Below are positions 20,201-37,588 of a stretch of DNA of 64,000 bases, in pieces (the first letter of the stretch is position 1; the number at the start of each line of letters is the position of its first letter). The notes below the pieces were generated by a model that was not told where the DNA came from, ran no database searches, and saw only the letters and a list, made by a program, of their open reading frames with translations. The translations under genes were made by a program, and so were the position numbers. Source of the DNA: Candidatus Bathyarchaeia archaeon (GTDB lineage: Archaea; Thermoproteota; Bathyarchaeia; Bathyarchaeales; Bathycorpusculaceae); contig JAVZNE010000002.1 of the NCBI GenBank assembly GCA_038882975.1, forward strand, positions 32,001-96,000. Reading direction: 5' to 3'.

Positions 20201-20212
20201 AGAGGAAGTGTT

Positions 20213-21265
20213 TTGGTTAAAAAATGCGCAATAGTGCTTGCAGGAGGAAAAGCTGAAAGATTCCAAGTAAAGGATAGTCCATGGATAGATAAGGCATTGG
20301 CAAACGTTATCGGCAAACCGCTGCTTATACATGTAATTGAAAGGGTAAAGCCAGTAGTTGAAGAAATCATAATCTGCGTTAATAATGAAACGCGAAGACG
20401 CAAATACATGAGAGTGTTGCGAAACTTTCTAATAAAAAATGACTATGTAAAAATTGTGAAAGACTTTAAAATTCCATCTATCAGCGGCCCAGCTGTGGCA
20501 ATAGCCACTGGGCTGAGCGTTTCAAATGCTGACCACTGTATTATAGTGCCATGTGACACACCATTTATACAGCCAGCTGTGGTTGATTATCTTTTTAACG
20601 CTATTGGAGATGCAAGCATAGCCGTTCCAATACATGCGGATGGAAGTGCAGAGACACTAATGTTTACATGCGAAAGGGGAAAAATCGCTGAGATATCAGA
20701 AACGCTTTGTTGGCTTGGACGCGACAGACCGGACGACTTGCTAAGGGGATCGCCAAAAGTGAAATTTATCTCAACCAAAAGACTAAAAAATTTGGATCCA
20801 GAGTTCAAGAGTTTCATCAATATAAATTTCCAGAAGGACTTGGCTGAATTACGGACAAGAGTTACTCTGAATGGACCAATAAAAAGAAATGTGTGCATAA
20901 ATTTAGGTGCTCCAAAGAGCTTTGAGCTGAAAATGCTGAAAAAGGCTGCAGAAAAATACCTGCATAATAAATTTATTGAAGCAGTGAAAGTTTTTTCATC
21001 CCTATCCAACTTTTTTGAGGAAAGAAGATTATACTTTTGGGCGGGACTTTGTTGGGAAAAGGAAGGTAGCGCCATACAAACCCTAATAAAAAATCGAAGA
21101 GACATGGAGACCAAAAGCGAATGGCGAGAAAAAAGTAAACAAGCGTTTAGAAAAGCTGTGCAGAATTACGCCTTAGAAGCAGAAATTTTTACTCGAAAAC
21201 AAATCTATCTCTTAGCTAAACGTGCAAAAGAAGATGAGCTTTGGTGTAAACATCTATCTTCCTAG
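20213..21265 (+). CDS. mobA: Molybdenum cofactor guanylyltransferase MobA with C-terminal helical extension
   Basis: VLAGG...RF...DKAL, GPAVAI, PCDTPF, FININ. Confidence 0.85.
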   Translation: MVKKCAIVLAGGKAERFQVKDSPWIDKALANVIGKPLLIHVIERVKPVVEEIIICVNNETRRRKYMRVLRNFLIKNDYVKIVKDFKIPSISGPAVAIATGLSVSNADHCIIVPCDTPFIQPAVVDYLFNAIGDASIAVPIHADGSAETLMFTCERGKIAEISETLCWLGRDRPDDLLRGSPKVKFISTKRLKNLDPEFKSFININFQKDLAELRTRVTLNGPIKRNVCINLGAPKSFELKMLKKAAEKYLHNKFIEAVKVFSSLSNFFEERRLYFWAGLCWEKEGSAIQTLIKNRRDMETKSEWREKSKQAFRKAVQNYALEAEIFTRKQIYLLAKRAKEDELWCKHLSS

Positions 21266-21961
21266 GTAGGCTTCTTTCACTTTTGGGTTTTTTAAGAGCT
21301 CTTCAGGGGCTCCTTCTAAAACTATTCTTCCATTCTCAATCACATAAGCCCTCTTTGAAAGCTTTAAGGACGCCAGAACATTTTGCTCAACAAGCAGAAT
21401 GGCAACCTTTTCCACATCGTTTATCTTTTTTACAGTATCAAATATGGATGCGGCTAGTTTGGGCGCAATTCCAAGCGACGGCTCATCCAATAATAGTAGT
21501 TTTGGCCTCAGCATTAGCGCCCTTCCAATAGCTAGCATTTGCTGTTCTCCTCCGCTTAGAGTCCCAGCCAGCTGACTACGCCTTTCCTTAAGCCTTGGAA
21601 AGAGGTTAAAAACAATCTCAAAAGTTTCGTCTTTTTTCTTCCATGCTTGGGGCAGATATGCGCCCATTTTTAGATTCTCTTCCACTGTTAGGTTTGGAAA
21701 GAGTCTCCTGCCCTCCATGACGTGAGCTATGCCCAAAGCAGCTCTTTTGTGCGGTTTTAACGTAGATATATCCTTATCAAAAAATTTGATTCGCCCTTCT
21801 CTTGGATACAGCTGACCGCTTATGGTCCTTAACAATGTTGTCTTGCCGGCGCCGTTACTCCCAATAACCGCAACAAGTTCGCCCGTTGAAACATTTAGAC
21901 TTACATCCCTTAAAACTTGTAGATCCCCGTAAGCAGCGCTAACCTTCTCTACCTCAAGCAT
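21254..21961 (-). CDS. livF: Liv-type (HAAT) ABC ATPase LivF
   Basis: GSNGAGKTT, LSGGEQQMLAIGRALM, LDEPSLG, VEQN. Confidence 0.93.
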   Translation of the reverse strand: MLEVEKVSAAYGDLQVLRDVSLNVSTGELVAVIGSNGAGKTTLLRTISGQLYPREGRIKFFDKDISTLKPHKRAALGIAHVMEGRRLFPNLTVEENLKMGAYLPQAWKKKDETFEIVFNLFPRLKERRSQLAGTLSGGEQQMLAIGRALMLRPKLLLLDEPSLGIAPKLAASIFDTVKKINDVEKVAILLVEQNVLASLKLSKRAYVIENGRIVLEGAPEELLKNPKVKEAYLGR

Positions 21962-21970
21962 AACATCACC

Positions 21971-22690
21971 TCACGCGGAGTGGGGGCCTAAATATGCCTC
22001 TATTACTCTTATATCAGCTGCTATTTTTTCTGGTGGACCATCCGCTATAACCTTACCTTGATGTAGAACTATTATACGTTCCGCCAATGACATAACAACT
22101 CTCATCACATGCTCTGTTAACATTATCGTTAAGCCTTCCTTCCAAATCTTCTTAACAATGTCTATCATCTCGTCTGTTTCGGCAGGATTTAAGCCAGCGA
22201 AGGTTTCATCAAGCAATAAGATCCTTGGATTGGTTGCCAAGGCCCTTGCCAATTCACATCTTCTTCTAAAGTTGAAGTTTAATTTATTAACCGGCAGATC
22301 AGCGTACTCGTCCATCATCAAAAAGCGTAATATATCTTTTGCGCGTTCTTTCGCCTTTTCCAAGGAAAAATTTGCGCCTAAAGCACCAACGGTCACATTT
22401 TCAAGCAATGTCAAATTTAAGAACGGACGGGGAATCTGAAATGTTCGAGCGATTCCAGATTTGCATATTTTATGGCTAGGTAGACCAACAATATTTTTCC
22501 CATTAAATATTATTTTGCCAGATGTTGGCTTGTAAAAGCCTGTAATGCAATTGTATAGGGTTGTTTTGCCTGCGCCATTAGGGCCTATAAGACCGATGAT
22601 GCTTCCTTCTTCAACCTCAAAGTTAACGTCGTCTAGGGCGACTACCCCGCCAAAGCGTTTGGAAACTCCTTTTATTTCAAGGATTGACAT
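21971..22690 (-). CDS. livG: Liv-type ABC ATPase LivG
   Basis: GPNGAGKTT, IARTFQ, LARALAT.P, EHVM, EAYLG. Confidence 0.93.
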   Translation of the reverse strand: MSILEIKGVSKRFGGVVALDDVNFEVEEGSIIGLIGPNGAGKTTLYNCITGFYKPTSGKIIFNGKNIVGLPSHKICKSGIARTFQIPRPFLNLTLLENVTVGALGANFSLEKAKERAKDILRFLMMDEYADLPVNKLNFNFRRRCELARALATNPRILLLDETFAGLNPAETDEMIDIVKKIWKEGLTIMLTEHVMRVVMSLAERIIVLHQGKVIADGPPEKIAADIRVIEAYLGPHSA

Positions 22691-22702
22691 TCTAATGGCA
22701 CC

Positions 22703-23704
22703 TCATAGAGCTTTAAGAAAGCTTAACTTTGCCTTTAAAAGTCCCCATATACCTTTTCTTGCAAGAAAGAATATCAAAATAAAGACTGCCCCAAACACAA
22801 CAAGATCCATTCCAGCCCTAAATCCGAATGAAACTCGAAGATATTCTCCAACCCCTATTCTTATTACAGAACCAACTGCCGGGCCGATAATGGTCTGCGC
22901 CCCTCCAATAACAGTTATTAAAACTGGTTCAATCGAGGTAAACAATGAAAGCACTCCTCCAGGCTCCATAGACGGGTCTATATACGAAATATAAACTGCG
23001 TATAAAGCCCCTACAGTACCAGCAATAAAGCCACTCACCAACATTGCTAACATTTTTAGTCTAAAAGGGTTCACCCCTAACGTTGACGCAGCGTCTTCGT
23101 CTTCTCTAATCGATTGGAGTAGCAGCCCGTAACGAGATTTGGATATGTAACTAACAACGAAAAACGACACAAGTAGAAGGATGAAAGATATGTAATAATA
23201 AGGAAGCTTCTCGGCAAAATTTATTACAAAAAAGGGTGTAGACACGGATGCGGGACGGGGTATTGAGATCCCTAAAGCCCCTTGTGTGAACTCCGTATTC
23301 AACACTACAAGTCTTATAACCTCAGTAGATGCCAGAGTTGCCAAAGCGAAATATGGGCCCCTAACCCTAAAGCACACAGCACCTATCGCCAAACCTATCA
23401 ACGATCCAACAGCGCCGCCGAGGATTATACCTAACCATGGACTAGCTTCAAAGTAATCAACATAAAATGTTAACAGCCCAACGGTGTATGCTCCCATGCC
23501 AAAGAAGGCTGCGTGTCCCAAAGACGATTGGCCTGCAAAACCTGAAAGCAGGTTCCATGACTGGGCAAGTGTAGCGAATAGTAAGATTAGTATTAACATA
23601 TGCATAAGGTAAGTTTGATGTGCCACAAATATGGGGGCCGCCAAGGCGATTAATATCAGGATAATTATCGCGATGGTTTTTGAGTTTATCTTTGGGTACT
23701 TCAT
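22703..23704 (-). CDS. livM: Liv-type ABC permease LivM
   Basis: WNLLSGFAGQ.SLGHAAFFG, GPYFALATLA, IREDEDAA. Confidence 0.92.
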   Translation of the reverse strand: MKYPKINSKTIAIIILILIALAAPIFVAHQTYLMHMLILILLFATLAQSWNLLSGFAGQSSLGHAAFFGMGAYTVGLLTFYVDYFEASPWLGIILGGAVGSLIGLAIGAVCFRVRGPYFALATLASTEVIRLVVLNTEFTQGALGISIPRPASVSTPFFVINFAEKLPYYYISFILLLVSFFVVSYISKSRYGLLLQSIREDEDAASTLGVNPFRLKMLAMLVSGFIAGTVGALYAVYISYIDPSMEPGGVLSLFTSIEPVLITVIGGAQTIIGPAVGSVIRIGVGEYLRVSFGFRAGMDLVVFGAVFILIFFLARKGIWGLLKAKLSFLKAL

Positions 23705-23708
23705 GAAA

Positions 23709-24590
23709 TCAACCCTTTGTGAACAACCCCTTTGGTCTAAATATTAGGATTAAAATGAAAAGGGCGAATCCAACAGCTGGAGTTAATGCGTATGGAACCC
23801 AGATTGTAGATACAGACTGCGCCACACCTATGATCATTCCTCCAAAAAAGGCTCCAAGAACATTTCCTAATCCTGCAAGAACACATATGATCAACGCGTA
23901 TAGCGTAAGCAATACACCAAGGTATGGATATATGTAGTAAATAAGGGAAAGGATAGCGCCTCCACAACCAGCCAATGCGATGCCAAGCCCGCCGCCTATT
24001 AACCTAATTCTTTCGGAGGATACTCCAAGGGATTCGGCAGCGTCTACATCTTGACTTACTGCTCTTATAGCAATACCCAGTTTGGTTTTTGACAGAAAAA
24101 GCTGTGTCGAAATTATTAATGCTAATGTTACTGCAAATGCAACTAAATATGCGCCACCAACAGATACCGGCCCCACTCGATAAGTCTCAAGCGAGATGCT
24201 AATGATCCTGTAGTCGCCACCCCATACAAGAAGCATAACATTTTCTACAAAGATGGATAAACCGAAAGTTAAGATTATTGACCCAAGCATTTCACCTATT
24301 AAATATTTGAATATGACTTTTGTTATAGCCATGCCACCAATAAAAAACAGGATAAACACTATCACAAAGGCTAATGCAAACGACACCATAGATGGAGGAA
24401 TGTTAAACCATATCTGGAAGTATTCGAAAAGGAAATAGGTTGTAAACATTCCCAATACGGCGAAGTCGCCGTGTGCCAAATTTTTTATGCCCATGACACC
24501 GAAAATTAAGCTCATTCCCATAGCTATAGTTGAATAGATTACACCGAGAATAAGACCATGTACGATCGTTGACGCCAGCAGATCTAGCAT
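23709..24590 (-). CDS. livH: Liv-type ABC permease LivH
   Basis: G.SLIFGVM...NLAHGDF, GIAIRAVSQD..AA, RPKGLF. Confidence 0.92.
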   Translation of the reverse strand: MLDLLASTIVHGLILGVIYSTIAMGMSLIFGVMGIKNLAHGDFAVLGMFTTYFLFEYFQIWFNIPPSMVSFALAFVIVFILFFIGGMAITKVIFKYLIGEMLGSIILTFGLSIFVENVMLLVWGGDYRIISISLETYRVGPVSVGGAYLVAFAVTLALIISTQLFLSKTKLGIAIRAVSQDVDAAESLGVSSERIRLIGGGLGIALAGCGGAILSLIYYIYPYLGVLLTLYALIICVLAGLGNVLGAFFGGMIIGVAQSVSTIWVPYALTPAVGFALFILILIFRPKGLFTKG

Positions 24591-24762
24591 TTGACCTCAC
24601 CGAGTTTCCTTGAGTTTAACGTAATTTTAGCGTATATATTCTAAACTTTCTATATAAAAGCTACGGTATTTTCCAATACTGCGTTAATTTAGGCGGAAAC
24701 ATCAGTTGAAGAAACACGAAAATTTTATAAGCTGTATTCTTTCACTTATTTCCGTGGTATAT

Positions 24763-26160
24763 ATGAAGAAAATTGAATTAATTATGGGAGGTATTGCTGT
24801 CATCGCTTTGATCCTCTCTATAGTATCGTTGGGTTACCTTTATACGATAACGTCTGGCATTGAGTCTAGGCTTTCCAGCGTTGAGGAGCAGCTTAACGCT
24901 TTGACAGCGAAGCCTTTGCTGTGGGGTTATGAGTTGAGGGTTGGGATATGTCTGCCGCTTTCTGGGGCTATGGCTGCTTTCGGTCAATCGGGATTACGAG
25001 GTGCGGAGCTGGCAACCGAGGAAATCAACTTTGCTGGGGGCATTTTAGGAGCCAGGATTAAGTTATACATTGAGGATTTTGCTGGAGATCCTAAAGTTGC
25101 GGTTTCAGCAACTGAGAAGCTCATAACAACCAATAAAGTACACGTTTTAAGAGGATACTTCACAAGCTCTGGAGCCATGTCAGCCATGCCAACAGCCGAA
25201 AGCTATAAATGCCCTGTACTTTCCATAGGCAGCAGCGCCAAAGAGCTCTGTCAAAAAGGATGGAAATACTGGTTTAAGACCCCGCCCAACAGTACAATGT
25301 TCGCTAAAGTATCTGTGGAGTTCTTAAAAAGCGAAATTGTACCTAGATTAAACCTCGGAAGACCTTTGAAGGTCGCAGTGCTGCACGAAAACACCTTAAT
25401 GGGAGTTTCAGACAAAAACGAGTTCCTAGCGGTTGTTAACGCATCAGAAGTCAATTGGCAGATAGTAGCCGTCAAAGACTATACGGCGGGCTCCTTGGAC
25501 TTTAGGCCAGTTTTAGAAACAATTAAGGCAGCGGGACCTGACGTTTTGGCTATGTCCGGCTACCTCACAGACAGCGTGTTAATAGCTAAGCAATCAAAAG
25601 AGATCGGATTAAACCCGTTGTTTATAAGCATTGGAGGGGCTGGCATGCAAACGCCAGCGCTTATTGACTTGGCTGGGGGAGATGTGGCATATTGGTTTGT
25701 AGCCAATGAGTACTGGTGGGACAGGGCATATCCAAGCCGCGAGGCCGGGAGGAAAGTTGCCGAAGCGTTTGTAGATAGATACGGTGTTCCCCCAGACTTC
25801 CAAGGGTGGGCGGGCTATGCGGGGCAATACATGCTCAAAGAACTATATGAAAAACTAGCAGAAACCCAGGCTGATGCCCTAAAAGATGCTTTCCAAAACA
25901 ATAAAGTGGAGGTTATACGTAACATGACTAGGGATGGCTTAGCAACTTTAAAGCTCTACTTGGACTGGACTGGAGAGCTATACTTCGAACCAAATGGTCA
26001 ATTGGCGTATTCGCTGACTGGCCCATGCATGGGATGCACAATAATACAAGTTCAACCAGCCACACAAGATGACTTGTGGTCCACTAAAGGGTACACGTTC
26101 CGCACGGTCTTCTCATCAGTCTATAAGGTCGCAGATCCGATAATCCCGCCAAGAACTTAA
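24763..26160 (+). CDS. LivK/LivJ-family (PBP1) substrate-binding protein, membrane anchored
   Basis: N-terminal TM plus coiled coil, PLSGAMAAFG, EINFAGGILG; divergent from livHMGF. Confidence 0.88.
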   Translation: MKKIELIMGGIAVIALILSIVSLGYLYTITSGIESRLSSVEEQLNALTAKPLLWGYELRVGICLPLSGAMAAFGQSGLRGAELATEEINFAGGILGARIKLYIEDFAGDPKVAVSATEKLITTNKVHVLRGYFTSSGAMSAMPTAESYKCPVLSIGSSAKELCQKGWKYWFKTPPNSTMFAKVSVEFLKSEIVPRLNLGRPLKVAVLHENTLMGVSDKNEFLAVVNASEVNWQIVAVKDYTAGSLDFRPVLETIKAAGPDVLAMSGYLTDSVLIAKQSKEIGLNPLFISIGGAGMQTPALIDLAGGDVAYWFVANEYWWDRAYPSREAGRKVAEAFVDRYGVPPDFQGWAGYAGQYMLKELYEKLAETQADALKDAFQNNKVEVIRNMTRDGLATLKLYLDWTGELYFEPNGQLAYSLTGPCMGCTIIQVQPATQDDLWSTKGYTFRTVFSSVYKVADPIIPPRT

Positions 26161-26322: not shown

Positions 26323-26925
26323 ATGAGGAAAACCTTAGTAGTTATAGCGTTAATAACCCTTTCAGTGGGAGTTTTCGTTTCCTTTTCATTTCAAGCACAA
26401 TACAGTGAACAAGTTGTAGCATATGACTGGACAATACACCCACGGGAACTAGCCCCGCCCAAAGAAGAGAATACAATCCCACAAAATGAGAATGAGTTTT
26501 CTACAACTGGCCTGGCATTCATTAGCATCACGAAGACCCAGGATGTTATAAAAAAATTTCCAAAGCTAACTGTTATAGCACTCGAATTGAACGTAACGGC
26601 ATCGCAGCCAGTTAGGGTAATAGTGGGTAGACTAATTCATTCAGATCCAGTTACCTTTGACCATGTAATATTTAACAGCTCAAGTACAACTTTCTCTGAA
26701 AGTATCACAACAAAAGGAACAGAGGCGGACTTTTTGGAAATAAGGAATGAAGGAGACACTTCAGTAAATGTCATGGGCAACGTGAAAGTTATCGGAGAGA
26801 TTGTTCATGCCAAGTACCCTTACATGAATATCGGCACCCTGATTTTCTTGTCTGGACTTGTCTTGCTAGTTTACGGAATCGCCATTAAGCCAAAAAAGAG
26901 AATCAAATATCTTAAAGGTTCATAA
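26323..26925 (+). CDS. Hypothetical membrane protein (N- and C-terminal TM helices)
   Basis: Hydrophobic termini flanking a beta-rich extracellular domain. Confidence 0.7.
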   Translation: MRKTLVVIALITLSVGVFVSFSFQAQYSEQVVAYDWTIHPRELAPPKEENTIPQNENEFSTTGLAFISITKTQDVIKKFPKLTVIALELNVTASQPVRVIVGRLIHSDPVTFDHVIFNSSSTTFSESITTKGTEADFLEIRNEGDTSVNVMGNVKVIGEIVHAKYPYMNIGTLIFLSGLVLLVYGIAIKPKKRIKYLKGS

Positions 26926-26993: not shown

Positions 26994-29585
26994 GTGACAA
27001 AAATGTATAGGATTGATGATGGAACATTGCGGTACACAAACTGTACTAAGGGTGGACCGGTATTTGTTTATGTAAAAGATGGAAGAATTGTTCGTATTGA
27101 ACCCCTTGAATTGAGCCCTGAGGATGCTGAGTCATGGGTTATCGAGGCAAGGGGAAAAACCTTTAAACCGCCAAGGAAAGCCAACGTAGCCGCTTGGACC
27201 CTGTCCGTGAGGGCGAAGGTTTACGCACTCAATAGGATTTTGCAACCACTAAAAAGGGTGGACTTCAACCCGGAGGGACAAAGAAACCCGGAGAATCGAG
27301 GAAAATCCACATATGAACCAATCAGTTGGGAAGAGGCCCTAAACATTTTAGCCTCAGAAATTGAACGCATAAACAAAAATTATGGCCCCGCGGCAATTTT
27401 AACAACGGCTTCTTCGCATCACAGCTGGGGGAACATAGGCTATAGAACAAGTGCATATCACAGGTTTATGGCAATTCTAGGAGCAACGTATGCAGACCAC
27501 AACCCTGACAGTTGGGAAGGCTGGTTCTGGGGTGCAATGCACCACTGGGGTTTTTCATGGAGACTTGGAATACCCGAACAATACGACCTCCTTGAAGACG
27601 CCCTAAAATATTGCGAAATGATAGTTTTCTGGTCATGCGACCCCCACGCCACGCTTGGAACATACGGAGGCCACGAATCAGTCCCGTGGAGATTTTGGCT
27701 TAAAGAATTAGGAGTAAAAATGGTTTTTATTGATCCCTTTTATAATTGGACCGCCATAAACTTCGCCGACAAGTGGCTAGCTCCAAAGCCCGGAACAGAC
27801 ACAGCTCTAGCCTTAGCCATCGCCTATACATGGATAAAAGAAGATACATACGACAAAGACTACATTGAAAAACGCACCTTAGGATTCGAAAAATGGAGAA
27901 GCTACGTTTTAGGCGAAGAAGACGGCGTTCCAAAAACTCCCGAATGGGCGGAAAAAATATGCGATGTACCAGCCCGCGAAATAAGAGCCCTTGCAAGGGA
28001 ATGGGCAAGAAAACGCACAATGCTTGCCTGTGGACGCGGCGGAATGGGAGGCGCCTGCAGAGCCTCCTACGGCCATGAATGGGCGAGAATGATGGTCTTA
28101 TTAGCAGCCATGCAAGGATTAGGAAAGCCTGGACGAAACATCTGGGGGACAACAGCGGGCGTGCCATACAACGGGAAATTCTACTTTCCAGGCTATGCTG
28201 AAGGGGGAATCTCCGGCGACGCAACAAACACAGCGGCAGCTACCTTACTTTCAAGAGGAATAACCAGGATGCCTGTCAGATGGACGACAAACGAGCCTCA
28301 AGGACAGCATGTTCTAAGGCTTTTAATTCCGGAGGCTGTTTTAAACCCGCCGTTGAGATGGAGGGGAAAAGGCTTTGCGGGAGCTTTCCCGGAAGCCCAA
28401 TTCAAAGAGTATAAGTACCCAGAGGATGGATTCCCACTGGCTAGAATGTTCTGGAGGTACGGCGCATCCTATATCTCAACAATGACCGAGACCAACAGAT
28501 GGGTTAAAATGTACAGAAGCCCGAAGCTCGATTTTGTCGTTTGCCAAGCAATATGGTTTGAAGGGGAAGCCAAATTTGCGGATCTAATCCTTCCAGCATG
28601 TACAAATTTTGAAAGATGGGACATTGGAGAGTGGGCAACTTCCGGCGGCTACACTCCGCACTTGTCCTACTCGACAAACCATCGCATCATAGTACTACAA
28701 ATGAAATGCATAGAACCCTTAGGAGAATCGAAATCCGACTACGAAATATTCGCCGCCGTCGCGAAAAAACTTGGATTTTACGAAAAATACACGGAGAACG
28801 GCATGACCGAGTTAGATTGGGTTAAAAGAATGTTTGAAGTCACAGACTTGTCAAAATATATTACGTGGGAGGAATTTTTTAAGAAGGGATATTTTGTCGT
28901 GCCTCTGCCTAAACCATACAAGCCAACTCCGGCGCTGAGATGGTTCGCCGAGGGGAGAAAAAGAGACACGCCAGACACTGGCCTCGCGGGAGGTAGAATA
29001 ATGGGTATACCTGATGGATACGGTCTGGGAACAACATCTGGCCTCCTAGAGTTTGAAGCTAGCACTTTAAAAAGGTTTAACCCAAATGATCCTGAAAGGC
29101 CGCCCGTACCCAAATACATTCCTTCATGGGAAGGCCCGGAAAGCCCGATTTCACAAAAGTATCCCCTTCAGCTGATTTCTCCGCATCCAAGGTATTCGTT
29201 TTTCACACAATATGATGGAAAAGACAGCTGGATTAACGATATCCCAGACCACAGACGCAAGGGTAAGGATGGTTATTACTATTGGATACTTAGGATAAAC
29301 CCTGTAGATGCAAATAGAAGGGGCATCTGCAATGGAGACATCATTAAAGTTTACAACGACAGAGGTGCCGTGATATGCATAGCTGAGGTTACCGAAAGAA
29401 TACGTCCCGGAGTTGTGCATGCCTATGAGGGAAGCGCGGTTTACGACCCTATAGATGAGCCTGGAAAGTCTCCGGACCGTGGAGGTTGCGTAAACTTGCT
29501 GACCCCTTCACGTCTAATGTCTAAAAATGCCAGTGGAATGGCGCCCAACTCGTGTCTTGTGGAAGTTTGCAAGTTAGGAGAGTAG
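26994..29585 (+). CDS. athL: Pyrogallol-phloroglucinol transhydroxylase (pyrogallol hydroxytransferase) large Mo subunit
   Basis: Long blocks match the recalled Pelobacter AthL sequence: GGPVFVYVKDG, SSHHxWGNxGYR, YADHNPDSWEGW, WGFSWRLGxPEQYDLLED, YFPGYAEGGISGD, LPACTNFERWD; no N-terminal Fe-S motif. Confidence 0.9.
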   Translation: MTKMYRIDDGTLRYTNCTKGGPVFVYVKDGRIVRIEPLELSPEDAESWVIEARGKTFKPPRKANVAAWTLSVRAKVYALNRILQPLKRVDFNPEGQRNPENRGKSTYEPISWEEALNILASEIERINKNYGPAAILTTASSHHSWGNIGYRTSAYHRFMAILGATYADHNPDSWEGWFWGAMHHWGFSWRLGIPEQYDLLEDALKYCEMIVFWSCDPHATLGTYGGHESVPWRFWLKELGVKMVFIDPFYNWTAINFADKWLAPKPGTDTALALAIAYTWIKEDTYDKDYIEKRTLGFEKWRSYVLGEEDGVPKTPEWAEKICDVPAREIRALAREWARKRTMLACGRGGMGGACRASYGHEWARMMVLLAAMQGLGKPGRNIWGTTAGVPYNGKFYFPGYAEGGISGDATNTAAATLLSRGITRMPVRWTTNEPQGQHVLRLLIPEAVLNPPLRWRGKGFAGAFPEAQFKEYKYPEDGFPLARMFWRYGASYISTMTETNRWVKMYRSPKLDFVVCQAIWFEGEAKFADLILPACTNFERWDIGEWATSGGYTPHLSYSTNHRIIVLQMKCIEPLGESKSDYEIFAAVAKKLGFYEKYTENGMTELDWVKRMFEVTDLSKYITWEEFFKKGYFVVPLPKPYKPTPALRWFAEGRKRDTPDTGLAGGRIMGIPDGYGLGTTSGLLEFEASTLKRFNPNDPERPPVPKYIPSWEGPESPISQKYPLQLISPHPRYSFFTQYDGKDSWINDIPDHRRKGKDGYYYWILRINPVDANRRGICNGDIIKVYNDRGAVICIAEVTERIRPGVVHAYEGSAVYDPIDEPGKSPDRGGCVNLLTPSRLMSKNASGMAPNSCLVEVCKLGE

Positions 29586-29589
29586 AGCT

Positions 29590-30450
29590 GTGAAAAAATG
29601 GGTTATGATCGTAGATGTGGATAAGTGCATAGCATGCTATGCTTGTTTCACTGCATGTAAAGATGAATTTTGGAGCAATGACCACCTCCCATATTCAGCT
29701 GGCATCAAAAAACGGGAGCAGACACTCATAAGGCTCGAAAAAAGGGAACGAGGGAAATTTCCCCATGTGAAAGTGGCTTATATGCCAGTTCTGTGCATGC
29801 AATGCGATAACCCCCCATGCTTGAAAGCAGCTGAGGATAACGCTGTATACAAAAGGGAAGACGGAATAGTGATAATAGATCCCGTAAAAGCCTTGGGGCA
29901 GCAAGAGATAATGAAGGCATGCCCGTATAACGCGGTTTCATGGAACGACGAGAAAAACCTCCCCCAAAAGTGCACTTTTTGTATTCACAGAGTCGAAGAT
30001 GGTAGTGCACCTCGATGTGTCCAAGCATGTCCCAGCGGAGCACTGTTATTCGGCGATTTAAACGACCCAAAAGGCGAAATAAGCAAAGTCTTGAAGTCAG
30101 GTTTAGCAGAGCCATTTCACCCAGAATACGGCACTAAGCCAAACGTTTACTACATGGGCCTTTATAAAATGACAAAATATTTCATAGCGGGGAACGTTGC
30201 ATTTAAAGAAAACGACGAATGTGCGGAAGGAGTAGAGGTGACCTTGATAAACGAGGAAACCGGTGAAACTAAAAAATTAAAAACTGATACCTTCGGAGGC
30301 TTTGAATTTGACGGGTTGGAACCAAACACAAGATACCGCATAAAGTTAGATTACCCGGGATACGCCTCTAAAGAAATGCGACTGGAACTCGACGGTGCAG
30401 ACGTATATCTTGGGTACGTGTTTATAGAAAAGAGCAACAAAGACGCTTAA
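29590..30450 (+). CDS. athM: Pyrogallol hydroxytransferase small Fe-S subunit
   Basis: DmsB-like with one cluster motif degenerate (DPVKALGQQEIMKACPY), plus C-terminal beta-sandwich domain (ECAEG...TDTFGGFEFDGL) as in AthM. Confidence 0.87.
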   Translation: MKKWVMIVDVDKCIACYACFTACKDEFWSNDHLPYSAGIKKREQTLIRLEKRERGKFPHVKVAYMPVLCMQCDNPPCLKAAEDNAVYKREDGIVIIDPVKALGQQEIMKACPYNAVSWNDEKNLPQKCTFCIHRVEDGSAPRCVQACPSGALLFGDLNDPKGEISKVLKSGLAEPFHPEYGTKPNVYYMGLYKMTKYFIAGNVAFKENDECAEGVEVTLINEETGETKKLKTDTFGGFEFDGLEPNTRYRIKLDYPGYASKEMRLELDGADVYLGYVFIEKSNKDA

Positions 30451-30506
30451 AACGTTAAATGTTAGATATAAAGATTTAATGGTTCTAAATCTTGGAGGTG
30501 AAATTG

Positions 30507-32960
30507 TTGCCAAATCAATCTCGTGTTAAAGTTGTGCGCACATCCGCATGGTCAGCCGGTCCTGGTTGCCATGGAGGTTGTGGGGTTGAGGTTTACGTAA
30601 AAGATGGCAAACTTGAGAAGGTGGAAGGCGATCCAAAGAATCCCTTCAACATGGGCAGGGTATGCGCCAGATGTCTGGCAATGAAACAGTATTTTTACCA
30701 TCCTCTACGATTGCTTTATCCTCTAAAACGAGTGGGGAAACGTGGCGAAAATAAATGGCAGAGAATCTCGTGGAGTGAGGCTTTCGACATTATAGAAAAG
30801 AAATTCCGAGAAATAAGTGAGAAATATGGCCCGGAAAGCATACTTTTTTGCCAGGGAACGGGCAGAGACATAGGAGCCGCTCTCACATTATTGGCGTATT
30901 CTGTTGGCAGCCCCAACTGGATTCAGCTCGGGTTAAGCGGGCATGCATGTTATACCCCAAGACTCGCCGCCATGTGGCTAACAACAGGCGAATATCAAGT
31001 ATTGGACGCTTCCCAATGGTTAGAAAAGAGATACGACGATCCCGAGTATAATCCTCCAAAATACATCATAGTTTGGGGCTATAACCTGCCAAGCACATGC
31101 CCAGACGGTTTCTTTGGACACTGGATAGTTGACCTAATGAAACATGGATCAAAGCTTATAGTGGTTGACCCAAGAGTTACGTGGCTTGCGTCAAGGGCGG
31201 AAATCCATTTACGCGTTAGACCCGGCACGGATGGGGCCTTAGCTTTGGGCATGTTAAAGGTGATTATTGATGAAAAACTTTATGATGAGGAGTTTGTTAA
31301 GAAGTGGACAAACGCCGCTTTTTTGGTTAGGACAGACACGAATAAGCTTCTTAGAGAGAATGATGTAAGCTCAAAGGGTAAACATGAAAACTTGGTTGTT
31401 TGGAATGAACGAAAAAATGATGTAACAATTTGGAACACAAAGAACCTAACCTATGAACCAATAGATACCGAGCCAGCTTTGGAAGGGTATTACAACGTCA
31501 CTTTGGCCAATGGCACCACCGTCCAATGTAAAACGGTATGGACAGCCTTAAAAGAAAGGGTTGCGGACTATACGCCGGAAAAAGTTGCAGAGATCACGTG
31601 GATTCCCGACCCCAGAGATATTGTTGAAGCGGCAAGGCTTTACGCCCAAAACAAGCCCTCAGCTATACATTGGGGGGTTGCCAGCTCAGACCATGCAGGG
31701 CCCAATGCAATCCCAACAGCTCAAGCAATAACCCAGCTATGGTGTGTTACAGGAAATTTAGACGCCCCTGGTGGAAATGTTATTGCAAGATACGCGTTTG
31801 GAGTCGTTGTTTACCCATTCCACGCTGGAGTTGGACCAGTGGCCCCTCCGGACACCTTCTACACGAAAAGATCAGGGGTGTGGAAGTACCCTGTTCTAAA
31901 AAACTTCCGGTCATGGGCCTTGTCAGACACGGCTTTAGAACAGATGTTTACTGGTGAACCCTACCCAATAAAAGCGGTATGGATGCAGACATGCAACCCG
32001 ATAGCGGGACAAAGTCCAGAGCCGCAAAAACTGCTCGAAGGTTTAAGGAAATGCGATTTCGTTGTTGTTGTAGACGCATTTATGACGCCAACAGCAGTAG
32101 CATGCGCCGATATAGTTTTGCCAGTATGCACCTTCATAGAAAGATACGGACTTAGAGCATGGTGGACCCCCTTGGAGGCAATGGTTAAAGCCATAGAACC
32201 TTTGGGAGAAACAAAATCTGACTATGAAATATGTTTAGAACTTGCCAGAAGATTCAACCCCAAAATTAAGTGGAAAGATCCCAAAGAGATGTTTACAGAT
32301 CTTGCGAAAGCTGCGGGCATAGATTACGATGAACTTTGCGAAAAAGTTTGGATGTTCACGCCAAAAGGTCACTCTTCAAGGCCGTATAAAAGATATGAAA
32401 GAGCACTATTAAGGCTCGACGGCAAGCCTGGTTTTCAAACACCTTCAGGAAAAGTTGAGTTATGGTCCTCGCTGCTGGAGGACTGGGGGTTAGAACCACT
32501 GCCATATTATGAGGAACCACCCTTCAGCCCCATAAGAACACCTGAACTTTACAGGGAGTACCCGCTTATTCTGGGGACTGGGAGAAGGTCATGGGCGTTT
32601 TTCCATTCAGAGCATAGGCAAATTCCATGGCTTAGAGAACTAGATCCAGACCCTGTTGTGGAGATTAACCCCGAAACCGCAGCTAAATATGGCATTAAAG
32701 ACGGCGACTGGGTGTGGATTGAAAACCATTTAGGAAAGTGTAAAAGAAAAGCCGTTGTAACGCCGATAATTCCTCCATGGATGGTTATGGCGCCTCACAA
32801 TTGGTGGCTCCCCGAAAAACCCGCCGCAGAGCCGAGCCTCTACGGAACATGGGAAATAAACGTAAACCAGCTAGTACCATATGGCTATGTGGGTGAAGGC
32901 GGGTTTGGTGCACCTTACAAAACAATGCTATGCAAAATATACAAAGCTGAGGAGGAGTAA
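30507..32960 (+). CDS. bis-MGD oxidoreductase, catechol dehydroxylase (Dadh/Hcdh/Cadh)-like
   Basis: TSAWSAGPGCHGGCG...C N-terminal motif, GHACYTPR ligand region, FFHSEHRQIPWLRE; TTG start after GGAGGTG. Confidence 0.85.
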   Translation: MPNQSRVKVVRTSAWSAGPGCHGGCGVEVYVKDGKLEKVEGDPKNPFNMGRVCARCLAMKQYFYHPLRLLYPLKRVGKRGENKWQRISWSEAFDIIEKKFREISEKYGPESILFCQGTGRDIGAALTLLAYSVGSPNWIQLGLSGHACYTPRLAAMWLTTGEYQVLDASQWLEKRYDDPEYNPPKYIIVWGYNLPSTCPDGFFGHWIVDLMKHGSKLIVVDPRVTWLASRAEIHLRVRPGTDGALALGMLKVIIDEKLYDEEFVKKWTNAAFLVRTDTNKLLRENDVSSKGKHENLVVWNERKNDVTIWNTKNLTYEPIDTEPALEGYYNVTLANGTTVQCKTVWTALKERVADYTPEKVAEITWIPDPRDIVEAARLYAQNKPSAIHWGVASSDHAGPNAIPTAQAITQLWCVTGNLDAPGGNVIARYAFGVVVYPFHAGVGPVAPPDTFYTKRSGVWKYPVLKNFRSWALSDTALEQMFTGEPYPIKAVWMQTCNPIAGQSPEPQKLLEGLRKCDFVVVVDAFMTPTAVACADIVLPVCTFIERYGLRAWWTPLEAMVKAIEPLGETKSDYEICLELARRFNPKIKWKDPKEMFTDLAKAAGIDYDELCEKVWMFTPKGHSSRPYKRYERALLRLDGKPGFQTPSGKVELWSSLLEDWGLEPLPYYEEPPFSPIRTPELYREYPLILGTGRRSWAFFHSEHRQIPWLRELDPDPVVEINPETAAKYGIKDGDWVWIENHLGKCKRKAVVTPIIPPWMVMAPHNWWLPEKPAAEPSLYGTWEINVNQLVPYGYVGEGGFGAPYKTMLCKIYKAEEE

Positions 32961-32963: not shown

Positions 32964-33311
32964 GTGAACAAAATCTCCAAAATAAAGTATGGGTTGCTTA
33001 TCGATTACGAGCACTGCACGGGCTGTCATACGTGTGAAATTGCATGTAAACAAGAGAACGAGCATCCTGTGGGAGAGTGGGGCATAAGAGTTTTGGAGTT
33101 TATTCAGCAGCTACCGAGCAAAAAGATCTACGTTACATACGTACCGTTCCCAACAGAGCTTTGTAATCTATGCATGGAACGTGTTAAGACGGGAAAACTG
33201 CCAGCTTGCGTAAAGCATTGCATGGCAAACTGTATGACTTTTGGCCCCATTGACAAATTAGCCAAAAAACTCAAGGAAAAACCAAGACAAGTGCTTTGGG
33301 CGCCAAAATAG
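32964..33311 (+). CDS. Short two-cluster 4Fe-4S partner subunit of the preceding Mo enzyme
   Basis: GLLIDYEHCTGCHTCEIAC, CNLC...PACVKHC; 115 aa. Confidence 0.88.
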   Translation: MNKISKIKYGLLIDYEHCTGCHTCEIACKQENEHPVGEWGIRVLEFIQQLPSKKIYVTYVPFPTELCNLCMERVKTGKLPACVKHCMANCMTFGPIDKLAKKLKEKPRQVLWAPK

Positions 33312-33331: not shown

Positions 33332-34234
33332 TTACTTCACGGAGAATGTGGTTCTGGTTTCAACGGCGGACGCCCGGATATGCACTTTCTTCCTACACTT
33401 AACATTTAATTCTTTAACCAAAGCTTTATACGAGGTAAGCCTCTCTAATGCTTCGTTCCACGCACCAGATTTTATTTCCGAATGTAAAATTTCAGTTCTT
33501 TCATGGACTATAGCCTTCGGCGGGCAAACCTCTTGACATGCACCACAATATATACAGGATTTTCTATCCACAACTGGTTTTCCCTCATCGTCCAAGCTTA
33601 TACACTTTGAAGGACAAATATCAACGCAGATTTGACATTTTTCTGGGCATAAACTTGTATTCACTTTTATGAGTCCGTTCATAGGCTTTACGACTTTGAT
33701 GGCATCAAAGGGGCAGGCTATTTCACACTTTTTACAAAAGATGCAAAGCTGCTTATCCACTTGAACGTCAATTATTTTCGGCTTTTTAAGGGGCCCCTCG
33801 CCTTCGGTAATCACTTTTACCGCTTTTGTTGGGCAAATCTCTTGGCAAGCTAGCTCGCAAGTGGGATCGCATAAAGTAATGTTAACAGCAATGTCTTTAA
33901 CGATTTTCGGAAAGGCTTCATTTTCAATAACTGGGATTCTTTCTTTTCCATCAATTTCTATCTTAATAGCGTTTAGTGGACACAGAACAACGCACTCACC
34001 GCAAAAATGGCATTTTTCGGCGTCTATGTCGATTTGGCATCTTCTCAGCAATCTGCCTTCATGAACCTCGGCGGGAAATTTTGTAACGGCTTTCTCTGGG
34101 CAAATTTTTTCACAAATTCCGCATCCAACACAAAGTTCAGAGTTTAGCATTAAAACTTGACGAGATGACAAAGTAGCCCTTTCTAATGTTAGTTTTTTGC
34201 GTGATTTAGATTTAATAATAGTTCTTGATACCAT
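33332..34234 (-). CDS. Polyferredoxin (FwdF-like, six 4Fe-4S motifs)
   Basis: Six CxxCxxCxxxCP-type motifs. Confidence 0.85.
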   Translation of the reverse strand: MVSRTIIKSKSRKKLTLERATLSSRQVLMLNSELCVGCGICEKICPEKAVTKFPAEVHEGRLLRRCQIDIDAEKCHFCGECVVLCPLNAIKIEIDGKERIPVIENEAFPKIVKDIAVNITLCDPTCELACQEICPTKAVKVITEGEGPLKKPKIIDVQVDKQLCIFCKKCEIACPFDAIKVVKPMNGLIKVNTSLCPEKCQICVDICPSKCISLDDEGKPVVDRKSCIYCGACQEVCPPKAIVHERTEILHSEIKSGAWNEALERLTSYKALVKELNVKCRKKVHIRASAVETRTTFSVK

Positions 34235-34435
34235 GTAAGCTTCCTGCGTAGAGGATTTTAGGAAACTACTCCCTTGATATAAAGCTTTACTTAGATTAAT
34301 TCCATGTCAGTGAAAATGAGAATCTTCTTAAGTAGGAAATGGCACAAATCTGCTTTAAATCAGATAGACATATAAGAATTGATGGGAAAAACCAAGGTGA
34401 GGCTGTAAAGGCACGTTTAAGCGGAGCTTGATGGT

Positions 34436-36769
34436 TTGATAGGAGTCTATATTTGTCATTGCGGGCGTAACATTAAGGGAGTTGTGGACGTTGAAAAAGT
34501 TAAGGAAGCCGTTTCACGTTTTAGAGATGTAAAAGTAGCTGAAACCTATGATTATCTTTGCAGCACACCTGGACAGAAAATAATTAAGGATGGGATAAAA
34601 GAGAAAGGCGTCAACAGAGTTGTCGTGGCTGCTTGCTCGGTTCAGCTTCACCTCGAAACCTTTCGCAAGGCTGTAGCAGATGCGGGATTAAATCCGTACC
34701 TTCTTGAAATGGTGAATATAAGGGAACACTGCAGCTGGGTTCACAGCGATGTCGACAAAGCTACTCTAAAAGCTATAGACCTAATAAGAGGAGCGGTTAA
34801 CCGTGCGAGACATCTGGAGGAACTGCAACCAATAAAAACTGTGGTTAAAAAAGATGTGCTGGTTGTCGGGGGAGGCATCGCCGGAATCCAAGCAGCTCTT
34901 GAATTAGCAGCTAAGGGCTACAAGGTTTATCTTGTTGAGCGGAATCCCAGCGTTGGAGGCCACATGGCGCAGTTGAGCGAAACTTTTCCAACCCTTGACT
35001 GCTCCTACTGTATACTGGCGCCAAGAATGGTTCAGGTTTCACAGCATCCAAATGTAGAAGTAATCACTATGGCAGAGCCTATTGCGGTAAAGGGCATACC
35101 AGGAGACTACAAAGTCACCATCAAGTTGGAGCCCAGATATGTAGATGAGAGCAAATGTACTGGCTGTGATGAATGTGCAAAAGTTTGCCCCGTCCAAATA
35201 TTAAATGAATTTGACGAGAATTTGGAGTTGAGAAAAGCCATATACATTCCATACCCTCAAGCTGTGCCCCGCGTATACGCAATCGATGTTGACCGCTGCA
35301 TTAAATGCTTTAGATGTGTGGACGTTTGTGGTCCAAGGGCGATAAACTTTTCAAAGGAACCAAATGAAATCGAATTAAACGTGGGTGCAATAGTCATTGC
35401 CACCGGTTATGACTTAATTGACCCACGACATCTGGGCGAATATTCTTACGGAATACACCCGGACATTGTAACGAACTTAGAGTTCGAACGTATTATGCGT
35501 TTGGGATTTCGTAGACCTTCAGATGGAAAGATCCCCAAAAAAGTGGCTTTCATTCTATGTGCTGGAAGTCGAGCGCTTCGAGAAGGTTCGAAGGAATACT
35601 GTTGTAAAATAGGGTGCATGGTTGCAATTAAACAGTCTATAATCCTTATGAAGGCTGTGGCGGGAGCTGAGCCTTGGATTTTCTATCAGGATCTAAGGGC
35701 AGCTGGTAGGGGTTATGAAGAATTCCTCAGCAGAGCCAAAGACCAGGGTGTAAAGTTCATCAGGGGCTTACCGTCAAGGGTTATACCTATGAAGAATGGA
35801 CTGGTGGTTAAGGCTACAGATACAATCTCTGGAATTCAAATTGAAGAGAACTTTGATATGGTGGTTTTGAGCGCAGCTATTGTACCAAGCTCGGGAACAG
35901 AGGCCCTAGCAAAAATTTTTAGCATCAGCACCGGAACCGACGGTTTTCTCCTCGAGAAGCACTACAAACTTGACCCCGTGGACAGTTTGCGAAAAGCAAT
36001 TTTTGTATGTGGATGCGCCCTCGGTCCAAAGGACATACGGGAATCGGTTGAGGGAGCCATGGCTGCGGCTTCTAGAGCCGCATCCTTCATTGGCAAGGGT
36101 GAACTGGAACACCCTCCAGAAGTGCCCAGAATAAATGTGGACAAGTGTAATCTTTGCGGCGAATGCGTCGCCATATGTCCAACAGGAGCATTATTGCTTG
36201 AAGAATCAAATGTTAAAATTGTTCCGGTGGCTTGCATAAACTGTGGCGCATGTGTAACTGCATGCCCGAAAAAGGCCATAGACCTTGCAAACTTCACCGA
36301 GGAACAGATTATTGAACAGATTAAAGGCGTATGTGAAGGAGAAATTGACGAACCAAAAATAATAGTTTTCGTTGAAAAAACCACAGCCTACGCCTCCCTC
36401 GATCTTGCCGGGACAAGAAGGTATAGCTACATAGCCAATGTTCGACCTATCCCAGTGCCAAGCTGCATGCGCGTTGGAACAAAACATGTTCTGACAGCCT
36501 TGGCTTTCGGCGCTGACGGGGTAGGCTTAATTGAAGGTGATGATAGCCCCTTCGCCGGTGAAAAATTACGCCAATATACTAATAAACTTAAGGATGAGCT
36601 AAGACATTACGGCGTAAACCCGCTTAGACTGCAATCCACAACCACAACAGTTCCACAATACGATAAAACCGTTGACTTTCTACAAACCTTAAGCACCAGA
36701 ATTTCCCGCCTAGGCAAAATTCCACAACATGAAAGAGGAAAAATAAAAGAAGTGCTTAGGAACCTATAA
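34436..36769 (+). CDS. hdrA: Heterodisulfide reductase subunit A fused to a degenerate MvhD-like domain
   Basis: IGVYICHCG, VAACS, NIREHCSWVH, GGGIAG, TFPTLDC, YCCKIGC, GPKDI; C-terminal DLAGTRR...GADGV. Confidence 0.93.
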   Translation: MIGVYICHCGRNIKGVVDVEKVKEAVSRFRDVKVAETYDYLCSTPGQKIIKDGIKEKGVNRVVVAACSVQLHLETFRKAVADAGLNPYLLEMVNIREHCSWVHSDVDKATLKAIDLIRGAVNRARHLEELQPIKTVVKKDVLVVGGGIAGIQAALELAAKGYKVYLVERNPSVGGHMAQLSETFPTLDCSYCILAPRMVQVSQHPNVEVITMAEPIAVKGIPGDYKVTIKLEPRYVDESKCTGCDECAKVCPVQILNEFDENLELRKAIYIPYPQAVPRVYAIDVDRCIKCFRCVDVCGPRAINFSKEPNEIELNVGAIVIATGYDLIDPRHLGEYSYGIHPDIVTNLEFERIMRLGFRRPSDGKIPKKVAFILCAGSRALREGSKEYCCKIGCMVAIKQSIILMKAVAGAEPWIFYQDLRAAGRGYEEFLSRAKDQGVKFIRGLPSRVIPMKNGLVVKATDTISGIQIEENFDMVVLSAAIVPSSGTEALAKIFSISTGTDGFLLEKHYKLDPVDSLRKAIFVCGCALGPKDIRESVEGAMAAASRAASFIGKGELEHPPEVPRINVDKCNLCGECVAICPTGALLLEESNVKIVPVACINCGACVTACPKKAIDLANFTEEQIIEQIKGVCEGEIDEPKIIVFVEKTTAYASLDLAGTRRYSYIANVRPIPVPSCMRVGTKHVLTALAFGADGVGLIEGDDSPFAGEKLRQYTNKLKDELRHYGVNPLRLQSTTTTVPQYDKTVDFLQTLSTRISRLGKIPQHERGKIKEVLRNL

Positions 36770-37578
36770 TGAAAGAAAATGTAGAGCTTAAAACTTCTAT
36801 TGTAAAATTCTACGAGGAAAACCTAAGAAAGCGCATTAAAAGTTTTGTGCCACTATGTTATCATCCGGGAGGAATAGAAACAACCGAAGAAATATTAAAG
36901 GAGGCAAAGATAGGCAAAGACTCCCATGTTTTGGATGTTGCGTCTGGAATAGGTGACACTGCAATTTACTTAGCGGCAAATGTAGGATCAAGGGTTACTG
37001 GCATAGACTTGTCACAGGAAATGGTTGCATATGCAAATACTCTAGTGAAAGAGGTTGAACTTGATCCTCATATTACCTTTTTAATGGCAGACGCTGAAAA
37101 CCTCCCTTTTAAAGACAATGTGTTTGACGTTGCAATAAGTGAATGCTCTTTATGTTTAGTTCCAAATACGCGAAAGGCGTTATGCGAAATGAAAAGGGTT
37201 ATTAAACCGGAGGCTAAGGTTGTTGTGTCAGATGTTGTGTTGAAAGAAAAACTTTCTCCAAACCTAAACAATTTTTTGTCGTATGCTAGCTGCATCGCAG
37301 GCGCCAAAACGTTAGGCGAATACATCAATGAATTCGAGAAAGCTGGTTTAACGAGGATTATAACGGCGGATCTCTCTTTTCAAGTTGTTAAGCAGATTTG
37401 CCAATATTTAGAAAACCAGAAAACAAGCTCCGAAGAAATAGTGAAAGTTGGAGAATCTCTAGTTACAAGTTTTCCAGAAAGATACGATATGAAGACTTTT
37501 CAAACAATTTCCTTTTATCTATGGCTTACCGGGAAAATAGGGTATTATATGATAAGTGGTGTTAAAACAAAACGGTAA
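36769..37578 (+). CDS. Class I SAM-dependent methyltransferase (ArsM/DVU_1556-like)
   Basis: HPGG, LDVASGIG, DAENLPF, SECSLCL, SCIAGA; ATG overlaps the hdrA stop. Confidence 0.85.
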   Translation: MKENVELKTSIVKFYEENLRKRIKSFVPLCYHPGGIETTEEILKEAKIGKDSHVLDVASGIGDTAIYLAANVGSRVTGIDLSQEMVAYANTLVKEVELDPHITFLMADAENLPFKDNVFDVAISECSLCLVPNTRKALCEMKRVIKPEAKVVVSDVVLKEKLSPNLNNFLSYASCIAGAKTLGEYINEFEKAGLTRIITADLSFQVVKQICQYLENQKTSSEEIVKVGESLVTSFPERYDMKTFQTISFYLWLTGKIGYYMISGVKTKR

Positions 37579-37588
37579 AGGTGAAGGC

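Follow-up and report, generated by a model that had tools for sequence, protein, structure and literature searches.

A transhydroxylase-type gene pair and its iron-sulfur subunit

The DNA analysed here (the window) is a stretch of 64,000 nucleotides (nt) from contig JAVZNE010000002.1 of a Candidatus Bathyarchaeia archaeon, and it carries a gene pair, AthL1/AthS1, related to the pyrogallol transhydroxylase of Pelobacter acidigallici. The host genome comprises 1.42 Mb in 15 contigs and is 94.7% complete; the archaeal proteins S19e, L31e, eIF-6, prefoldin and RtcB are encoded in the window as well. AthL1 (P0001; 26994–29585, plus strand; 863 amino acids, aa) is a large subunit of the type that binds molybdenum or tungsten (Mo/W) in a bis(molybdopterin guanine dinucleotide) (bis-MGD) cofactor. 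Its likelier start is the ATG at 27003, with GGTGA a few bases 5' of it. AthS1 (P0002; 29590–30450, plus strand; 286 aa) follows after 4 nt and is an Fe-S subunit with a Fer4_11 match and a C-terminal beta domain of the CarboxypepD_reg type (PF13620).

Both proteins were compared with all PDB chains using HMMER and scanned against the Pfam and NCBIfam profiles. The match of P0001 to the large subunit of the P. acidigallici pyrogallol hydroxytransferase (4v4c_A; 1096 bits, E=0, query residues 12–860 against chain residues 5–866) is far above chance, because the runner-up among solved families, dimethyl sulfoxide (DMSO) reductase, scores 262 bits. P0002 matched the corresponding small subunit (4v4c_B) with 196 bits, the next match having 126 bits. 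In the Pfam scan, P0001 contained PF21423 (AhtL-like_1st; 84.2 bits, cut-off 27), PF00384 and PF01568; the Fe4S4 domain (PF04879) was not found in it, the AhtL-like first domain standing in its place. No twin-arginine motif was seen in the AthL1 translation, and neither P0001 nor P0002 reached any NCBIfam model. The 1096-bit match also settles the fold of AthL1. Judged by these profile matches, AthL1/AthS1 is a member of the AthL/BthL transhydroxylase family and not of another DMSO-reductase branch.

The small subunit has the cysteine pattern CCCC CCCA AQIC CCCC. Cys groups I and IV are complete. In P0002 and 4v4c_B alike, group II is missing its fourth Cys and group III its first three; one [4Fe-4S] site is lost and three remain. 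We tallied the pattern in 38 partner subunits, namely P0002, the small subunit P0006 of a second pair in the window (see below) and 36 open reading frames (ORFs) located 3' of large subunits in related loci. The pattern CCCC CCCx xxxC CCCC was found in 26 of the 38, including P0002 and the partner encoded in the Eubacterium oxidoreducens DSM 3217 locus (L234). Further Cys were lost in seven, which are partners of proteobacterial-type large subunits with an N-terminal extension, while one (P0006) has all four groups. A reading of the sequence made earlier without database searches (the sequence-only reading) had pointed to the cluster loss as a likeness to Pelobacter. The loss is real, but it is a family trait and not a special tie to Pelobacter, because 26 of the 38 partners share it.

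In two related loci, L015 (4174–7820) and L019 (9965–13469), an AthL1 of the variant type described below has no Fe-S subunit gene behind it; the ORF that follows encodes 239 or 230 aa and contains none of the Cys groups. The metagenome-assembled genome (MAG) that carries L019 has another AthL1 copy in L012, and the MAG with L015 also includes L013; the L012 and L013 copies have a partner subunit.

Conserved catalytic residues and lineage-wide pocket-type substitutions

All motifs quoted in the sequence-only reading are present in P0001: SSHH at residue 140, GYR at 149, PDSW at 171, GGMGG at 349, PGYAEGG at 399, GKGFAG at 458 and ATSGGY at 548. Alignment to 4v4c_A bore out the conservation of the catalytic His, Asp and Tyr residues, with H142 corresponding to H144 of the Pelobacter chain, Y150 to Y152, R151 to R153, D172 to D174, S173 to S175, Y401 to Y404 and Y553 to Y560. 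The catalytic roles assigned here to His144, Asp174 and Tyr404, and the roles of the pocket residues, are those reportedly described with the structure in 2004. In a MAFFT alignment of P0001 and its 120 best database relatives, each at least 62% identical, these residues all map to near-invariant columns: among 121 sequences H144 is kept in 121, Y152 in 120, R153 in 117, D174 in 119, S175 in 121, Y404 in 121 and Y560 in 116.

Two active-site substitutions had been proposed. The first, Trp to Met in GGWGG, was recovered as such (M351 aligned with W354). The second, Cys to Ser in ANCSGY, is present and wider than described: the alignment pairs T549/S550/G551 with N556/C557/S558, so that three residues are changed (NCS to TSG) and not the Cys alone. 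Position 354 is occupied by W in 84 of the 121 sequences, by M in 11, F in six, H in two, E in two and L in one, with gaps in 15; position 557 by C in 91, P in 14, S in eight, I in five and A in three. The combination seen in AthL1 (M or H at 354 together with x-[S/A]-G at 556–558) is limited to proteins at least 80% identical to P0001 (P0007–P0011), and was also found in all ten loci L010–L019 when 31 of the 78 listed loci were translated. The next relative, P0012 (76% identity), has the canonical W and HCS.

To describe the difference as a whole, we defined a canonical set of 85 sequences with W or an alignment gap at 354 and C-S at 557–558. Of the 367 columns with a conservation of 90% or more in this set, 313 are also kept in at least 90% of the 16 query-type sequences, while ten are replaced in all 16, besides the change of W354 to M or H. 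The replaced query positions are 178 (H to F; five residues past the Ser ligand), 322, 441, 491, 550 (C to S/A), 551 (S to G), 554 (I to T/S), 662 (W to T/P), 664 (P to L/M/F) and 813 (S to G/A). Where the canonical pocket signature consists of W354, N/H556-C557-S558, H180 and I561, P0001 has M, T-S-G, F and T. With 313 columns kept and ten replaced throughout the clade, the remodelling is therefore lineage-wide, selective and larger than two residues. The substitutions in AthL1 are not private to one gene: in the sequences compared they are fixed across a clade labelled Bathyarchaeia.

A FastTree phylogeny (LG+gamma) was built from 167 sequences: P0001, the second large subunit of the window (P0005), 120 database matches and 45 ORFs from the loci. 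It was rooted on the paralogue P0005, which forms a long branch, and Pelobacter AthL, RhL and DbhL lie outside the tree set. The 16 query-type sequences are monophyletic (support 1.0) and stand outside a 141-tip clade (support 0.999) that includes P0104, L207, P0013 and the E. oxidoreducens homologue L234, which served as the anchor; the placement of the query clade near the base has weak support (0.44–0.54). The description of AthL1 as near-orthologous to the Pelobacter enzyme is correct as to the family and too strong otherwise, because the query clade is a separate lineage outside the clade with the canonical sequences.

The closest loci (80–90% identity) are mostly labelled Candidatus Bathyarchaeia or Bathyarchaeota, and family members also occur in records with the archaeal labels Nezhaarchaeales and Nitrososphaerales. 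Relatives from Proteobacteria, Acidobacteria and Desulfobacterales (L020–L061, for example L029, 9617–12574) are about 50–58% identical and have an N-terminal extension of about 125 aa; their pocket signatures differ again (F|NCG, V|NVG).

Compared with the Pelobacter enzyme, AthL1/AthS1 has full-length matches in both subunits, the same domains (among them the AhtL-like first domain and, in the small subunit, the C-terminal beta domain), the Ser ligand, the equivalents of H144, Y152, R153, D174, Y404 and Y560, and the same lost Fe-S site. It differs by an archaeal host, by the changes W354 to M, N556/C557/S558 to T/S/G, H180 to F and I561 to T, and in the segment TPDWGP, which reads TPDTGL in AthL1, followed by a 3-residue insertion. 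A look-up by regular expression found no insertion like that of the Pelobacter chain among the sequences compared. The E. oxidoreducens homologue is 58% identical over the alignment and shares the catalytic set and the Cys pattern of the partner; unlike the AthL1 clade, it has the canonical H, W, NCS, I, W and P at the sites changed there. A pyrogallol-phloroglucinol isomerase activity of E. oxidoreducens is the subject of a reference cited in PMC10470551.

Gene neighbourhood, a second pair and phloroglucinol-route genes

The genes surrounding AthL1/AthS1 were identified by Pfam. On the 5' side lie Mo/W cofactor genes (MobB-FeS, MoeA, MobB and MobA-like; 17513–21265), which are conserved upstream in L017, and a branched-chain-type ATP-binding cassette (ABC) transporter (21254–26160) whose ATPases and permeases (two of each) are encoded on the minus strand and whose Peripla_BP_6 binding protein is encoded on the plus strand (24706–26160). 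Transporter genes adjoin AthL1 in L010, L011, L015, L017 and L019, and the same transporter type occurs near the cyclase discussed below in 12–16 of 80 listed loci, depending on the component. It is a candidate uptake system for an aromatic substrate. Between transporter and AthL1 a 200-aa protein with hydrophobic ends is encoded (26323–26925).

On the 3' side, a gene for an acetylene-hydratase-like (AH-like) Mo/W enzyme with an N-terminal Fe4S4 domain (30492–32960, plus strand; 822 aa; 288 bits to 2e7z_A) begins 41 nt past AthS1 on the same strand. After another 3 nt it is followed by the gene for its small ferredoxin-like partner (32964–33311, plus strand; 115 aa; Fer4_11 and partial DmsB-type matches). 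None of the 12 related loci examined has the AH-like gene; in L194, a Desulfobacula MAG, a 55%-identical copy and two ferredoxin-like matches adjoin a short-chain dehydrogenase/reductase (SDR) gene, AthL1 and AthS1 in this order. The acetylene-hydratase class is described, in a passage of PMC7028382, as the nearest class to gut catechol dehydroxylases.

A polyferredoxin gene (33332–34234, minus strand) and a gene for an HdrA-MvhD fusion (34436–36769) come next. They are part of a module (33332–41648) that also holds a methyltransferase, a ferredoxin with a PhsA-like Mo enzyme (481 bits against the PhsA model, cut-off 694) and HdrC/HdrB-like genes. The module lies beside the AthL1 gene or genes in five of ten close relatives (L010, L015, L016, L017 and L019), which repeat the order of the window with polyferredoxin and Hdr module behind. 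Elsewhere in the window, two further Mo/W oxidoreductase genes of the bis(pyranopterin guanine dinucleotide) type (741 and 866 aa, minus strand) occur in the regions 5651–10582 and 2790–5149, accompanied by genes for a ferredoxin, an HdrD-like CCG protein, a U32-family peptidase and a radical SAM protein. Six Mo/W enzymes are thus encoded within 64 kb, beside a cluster for cofactor biosynthesis.

A second pair, AthL2/AthS2, is preceded by a gene for a TorD/NarJ-family chaperone (43250–43945, plus strand; PF02613; 101 bits against the TorD model, below its cut-off). AthL2 (P0005; 44024–46720, plus strand; 898 aa) is a divergent AthL-family paralogue, 44% identical to AthL1 (598.7 bits) and matching 4v4c_A with 451 bits in two pieces that leave chain residues 387–445 unaligned. 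It retains the His and the Asp-Ser, with the signature HGTPDSGA----, and lacks the GYR, GGWGG, PGYAEGG and NCSGY elements. AthS2 (P0006; 46727–47569, plus strand) is an Fe-S subunit with a CarboxypepD_reg domain and the full pattern CCCC CCCC CCCC CCCC. A TorD-like chaperone is thus encoded nearby, yet no twin-arginine motif was found in the pair. AthL2 looks less transhydroxylase-like than AthL1, because the GYR, PGYAEGG and NCSGY elements are gone and its partner is of the four-cluster kind; AthL2/AthS2 may be a redox-active hydroxylase or dehydroxylase. The host genome contains just these two full-length AthL-type genes, and the full catalytic set is found in AthL1 only. Two AthLS complexes per genome have been noted for sediment Chloroflexi in a passage of PMC3971608.

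Directly 3' of AthL2/AthS2, in the window as well as in L088 and L099, are genes for a cupin, a cyclase and an SDR. In the window these are a cupin-domain protein that accompanies the cyclase (47617–47973, plus strand; 118 aa), a cyclase-family protein (47992–48894, plus strand; PF04199, 122.7 bits), which is a candidate dihydrophloroglucinol cyclohydrolase (DPGC), and an SDR (48906–49676, plus strand; GTG start at 48906 behind GGAGG), which is a candidate phloroglucinol reductase. They are followed by a thiolase-like protein (49780–51012) and its DUF35/OB-fold partner (51014–51514), both on the minus strand and both conserved with AthL1 in L013 and L018, and by an enoyl-CoA hydratase (51542–52339; CoA, coenzyme A) and a family III CoA-transferase (52416–53564), both on the plus strand and both within the AthL1 block of L018. 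A gene for a major facilitator superfamily (MFS) transporter comes after the CoA-transferase.

The candidate DPGC is 62% identical to Archaeoglobus fulgidus O29068, an entry given as dihydrophloroglucinol cyclohydrolase in the supplement of Zhou et al. 2023 (PMC10470551), and by this identity falls into the group listed there as DPGC; six Candidatus Bathyarchaeota entries appear in the same supplement. Among 80 listed loci with relatives of the cyclase, an SDR is nearby in 52 and a cupin in 41, the latter from many phyla. The loci include Rubrivivax gelatinosus and Mycobacterium records, and both names occur in the text of PMC10470551. When the SDR was searched against the PDB, the matches with E <= 1e-40 were to entries for gluconate 5-dehydrogenase and for FabG-type enzymes, none of them named phloroglucinol reductase.

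The pathway described for Clostridium scatologenes (PGR, DPGC, TfD, TAL; PMC10470551) resembles the genes found here in its DPGC-type cyclase, with an adjacent SDR in the window. A cupin stands beside the cyclase in the window, whereas none is mentioned in the accessible part of that account. The C. scatologenes pathway includes TAL; in the host genome no BKACE/TAL-type lyase match was found, and the CoA-transferase, thiolase/DUF35 and enoyl-CoA hydratase in place of TAL suggest a CoA-ester route. Because the host genome has no BKACE match and two strong matches to 3-hydroxyacyl-CoA dehydrogenase (3HCDH), the later steps would run on CoA esters. Such a route has reportedly been proposed for Pelobacter. 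A UbiD-family gene on contig C1 was considered as a gallate decarboxylase; it scored 294 bits against a VdcC cut-off of 650 and was not counted as evidence.

Close relatives link AthL1 to these genes. In L018 the order is CoA-transferase, cyclase, SDR, cupin, DUF35, thiolase, AthL1, AthS1, enoyl-CoA hydratase and MFS transporter; an SDR gene immediately precedes AthL1 in L012 and L013, where AthL2 pairs and TorD are close by; and in L011 a CoA-transferase adjoins AthS1. AthL1 is therefore associated with phloroglucinol-degradation genes in four loci. Among 80 listed canonical bacterial AthL loci, an SDR was found in 31, a cupin in 26, a cyclase in 24, the ABC transporter in 25–29 and an AthL2-type gene in 11. 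Since canonical loci share these neighbours, the variant has the genomic setting of the canonical enzyme, and the gene context supports a feeder role of AthL1/AthS1 for a reductive phloroglucinol route.

Predicted function and alternative explanations

With a probability of roughly 0.6, we propose that AthL1/AthS1 is a redox-neutral hydroxyl-transferase that converts a trihydroxybenzene to phloroglucinol, or to another ring accepted by the reductase, and thereby feeds the SDR/cyclase/CoA-ester route. It would be a cytoplasmic, oxygen-independent Mo (or W) bis-MGD enzyme, in which a trihydroxybenzene would bind to the metal held by Ser173 and the acid-base steps would be carried out by His142, Asp172 and Tyr401, as in the Pelobacter enzyme. 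A hydroxyl group would be exchanged with a polyhydroxybenzene co-substrate at zero net redox change. The product, phloroglucinol or another ring usable by the neighbouring reductase, would be reduced by the SDR and the ring then opened by the DPGC-type cyclase. Acetyl units would then be reached through CoA esters, in steps catalysed by the CoA-transferase, a 3-hydroxyacyl-CoA dehydrogenase with its gene elsewhere in the genome, the thiolase/DUF35 pair and the enoyl-CoA hydratase. The sequence-only reading had called the protein a true transhydroxylase; family membership, the Ser ligand, the His/Asp/Tyr set and the phloroglucinol gene context speak for this, while the activity is a prediction.

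Several observations weigh against the proposed function. Ten positions fixed in canonical enzymes, plus W354, are changed in all 16 members of the clade; W together with x-C-x was found in all 14 canonical loci picked from 80 listed, L234 among them (with H at 180 in 13 of the 14); and the clade lies outside the one that includes the E. oxidoreducens homologue. The best solved match of the SDR is gluconate 5-dehydrogenase and not a phloroglucinol reductase, and in the window the cyclase block is about 17 kb from AthL1, adjoining the divergent AthL2 pair instead. Pyrogallol is the default choice of physiological substrate; we give it about an even chance at most, since the positions changed in the clade do not vary among the canonical enzymes examined.

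The same chemistry might be applied to another substrate (hydroxyhydroquinone, tetrahydroxybenzene or a gallate-type ring) or another co-substrate, with the product still entering the phloroglucinol route; we regard this as unlikely. In its favour, the ten columns, each at least 90% conserved in the 85 canonical sequences, and W354 are replaced throughout the clade, and several bulky residues shrink (W to M/H, W to T/P). The same positions vary among other subfamilies (F|NCG, V|NVG, W|SPQ, W|GCL, E/M|NIS) at a fixed catalytic set, as would be expected of specificity sites, and a Peripla_BP_6-type ABC transporter lies beside AthL1. Sequential transhydroxylations are reportedly known for hydroxyhydroquinone in Pelobacter massiliensis. 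On the other hand, the genome lacks a canonical copy, so AthL1 may simply be its pyrogallol enzyme, and its neighbours match those of canonical genes. None of the data favours any one alternative substrate. The earlier suggestion of a possibly shifted specificity is plausible, with the qualification that the shift in the pocket (ten columns and W354) exceeds the two residues on which it was based.

A bolder and rather doubtful proposal is that the clade forms a distinct transhydroxylase specificity class, with a donor/acceptor pair other than pyrogallol and 1,2,3,5-tetrahydroxybenzene, for example hydroxyhydroquinone, or a carboxylated ring such as gallate that the adjacent ABC transporter would import. 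It would rest on the changes W354 to M/H, H180 to F, NCS to x-S/A-G and I561 to T/S and on the rebuilt TPDWGP loop. If true, it would represent the first archaeal route from plant polyphenols to the phloroglucinol pathway.

The resorcinol hydroxylase RhLS of Azoarcus anaerobius and the 3,5-dihydroxybenzoate hydroxylase DbhLS of Thauera aromatica AR-1 carry out net hydroxylations, with water and an electron acceptor as co-reactants. In PMC10100899 they belong to the RhL/PgtL branch of Ser-ligated MopB enzymes, and it is by this published branch that they are likened to AthL1. It is improbable that AthL1/AthS1 is a net-redox enzyme of this kind, that is, a water-dependent hydroxylase of the resorcinol/3,5-dihydroxybenzoate type or a reductive dehydroxylase, with electrons passing from AthS1 to the polyferredoxin and HdrA-MvhD. 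AthS1 has three complete cluster sites, polyferredoxin and HdrA-MvhD follow AthS1 in the window, L010, L016 and L017 and follow AthL1 in L015 and L019 with no recognisable AthS1 between, and the clade stands outside the canonical one. However, the redox-neutral Pelobacter enzyme and most of the partners tallied have this three-cluster pattern too, the polyferredoxin gene runs on the other strand, L011, L012, L013 and L018 have no Hdr module beside AthL1, and the equivalents of Tyr404, Tyr560 and Arg153 are all kept.

That AthL2/AthS2 feeds the phloroglucinol genes, while AthL1 and the AH-like enzyme serve an unrelated aromatic conversion, would agree with the position of AthL2/AthS2 immediately 5' of cupin, cyclase and SDR in the window, L088 and L099, with the apparent operon of AthL1 and the AH-like gene (gaps of 4, 41 and 3 nt) and with the AH-like and ferredoxin genes beside SDR-AthL1-AthS1 in L194, but it is highly improbable given the less transhydroxylase-like AthL2 with its missing elements and four-cluster partner, the position of AthL1 inside the downstream block of L018, where AthL2 is absent, and the lack of the AH-like gene in the 12 related loci.

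As regards published work, a survey of the MopB superfamily gives, in a table row, 285 RhL/PgtL matches and none from archaea, and places the origin of the family later than the rise of land plants (PMC10100899). A literature search on Bathyarchaeota or Bathyarchaeia with pyrogallol or phloroglucinol returned, in the accessible parts of the texts, no assignment of the enzyme or the pathway to the group. The gain is nevertheless incremental, because some Bathyarchaeota proteins are already called pyrogallol hydroxytransferase in the NCBI annotation and Bathyarchaeota DPGC entries are already in the supplement of PMC10470551. The pathway context of the AthL1 variant is already known.

In summary, AthL1/AthS1 is, by its sequence, an intact two-subunit archaeal member of a known enzyme family, with a pocket variant specific to its lineage. 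To our knowledge, there is just one solved transhydroxylase structure, the pocket of which is usually taken as a stand-in for the entire family. A lineage that has kept the catalytic residues and fixed other pocket-type residues is a natural experiment on the choice of substrate and co-substrate. Together with the linked DPGC, SDR and CoA-ester genes, it would offer Bathyarchaeia-type archaea an anaerobic route for rings derived from tannins and flavonoids.

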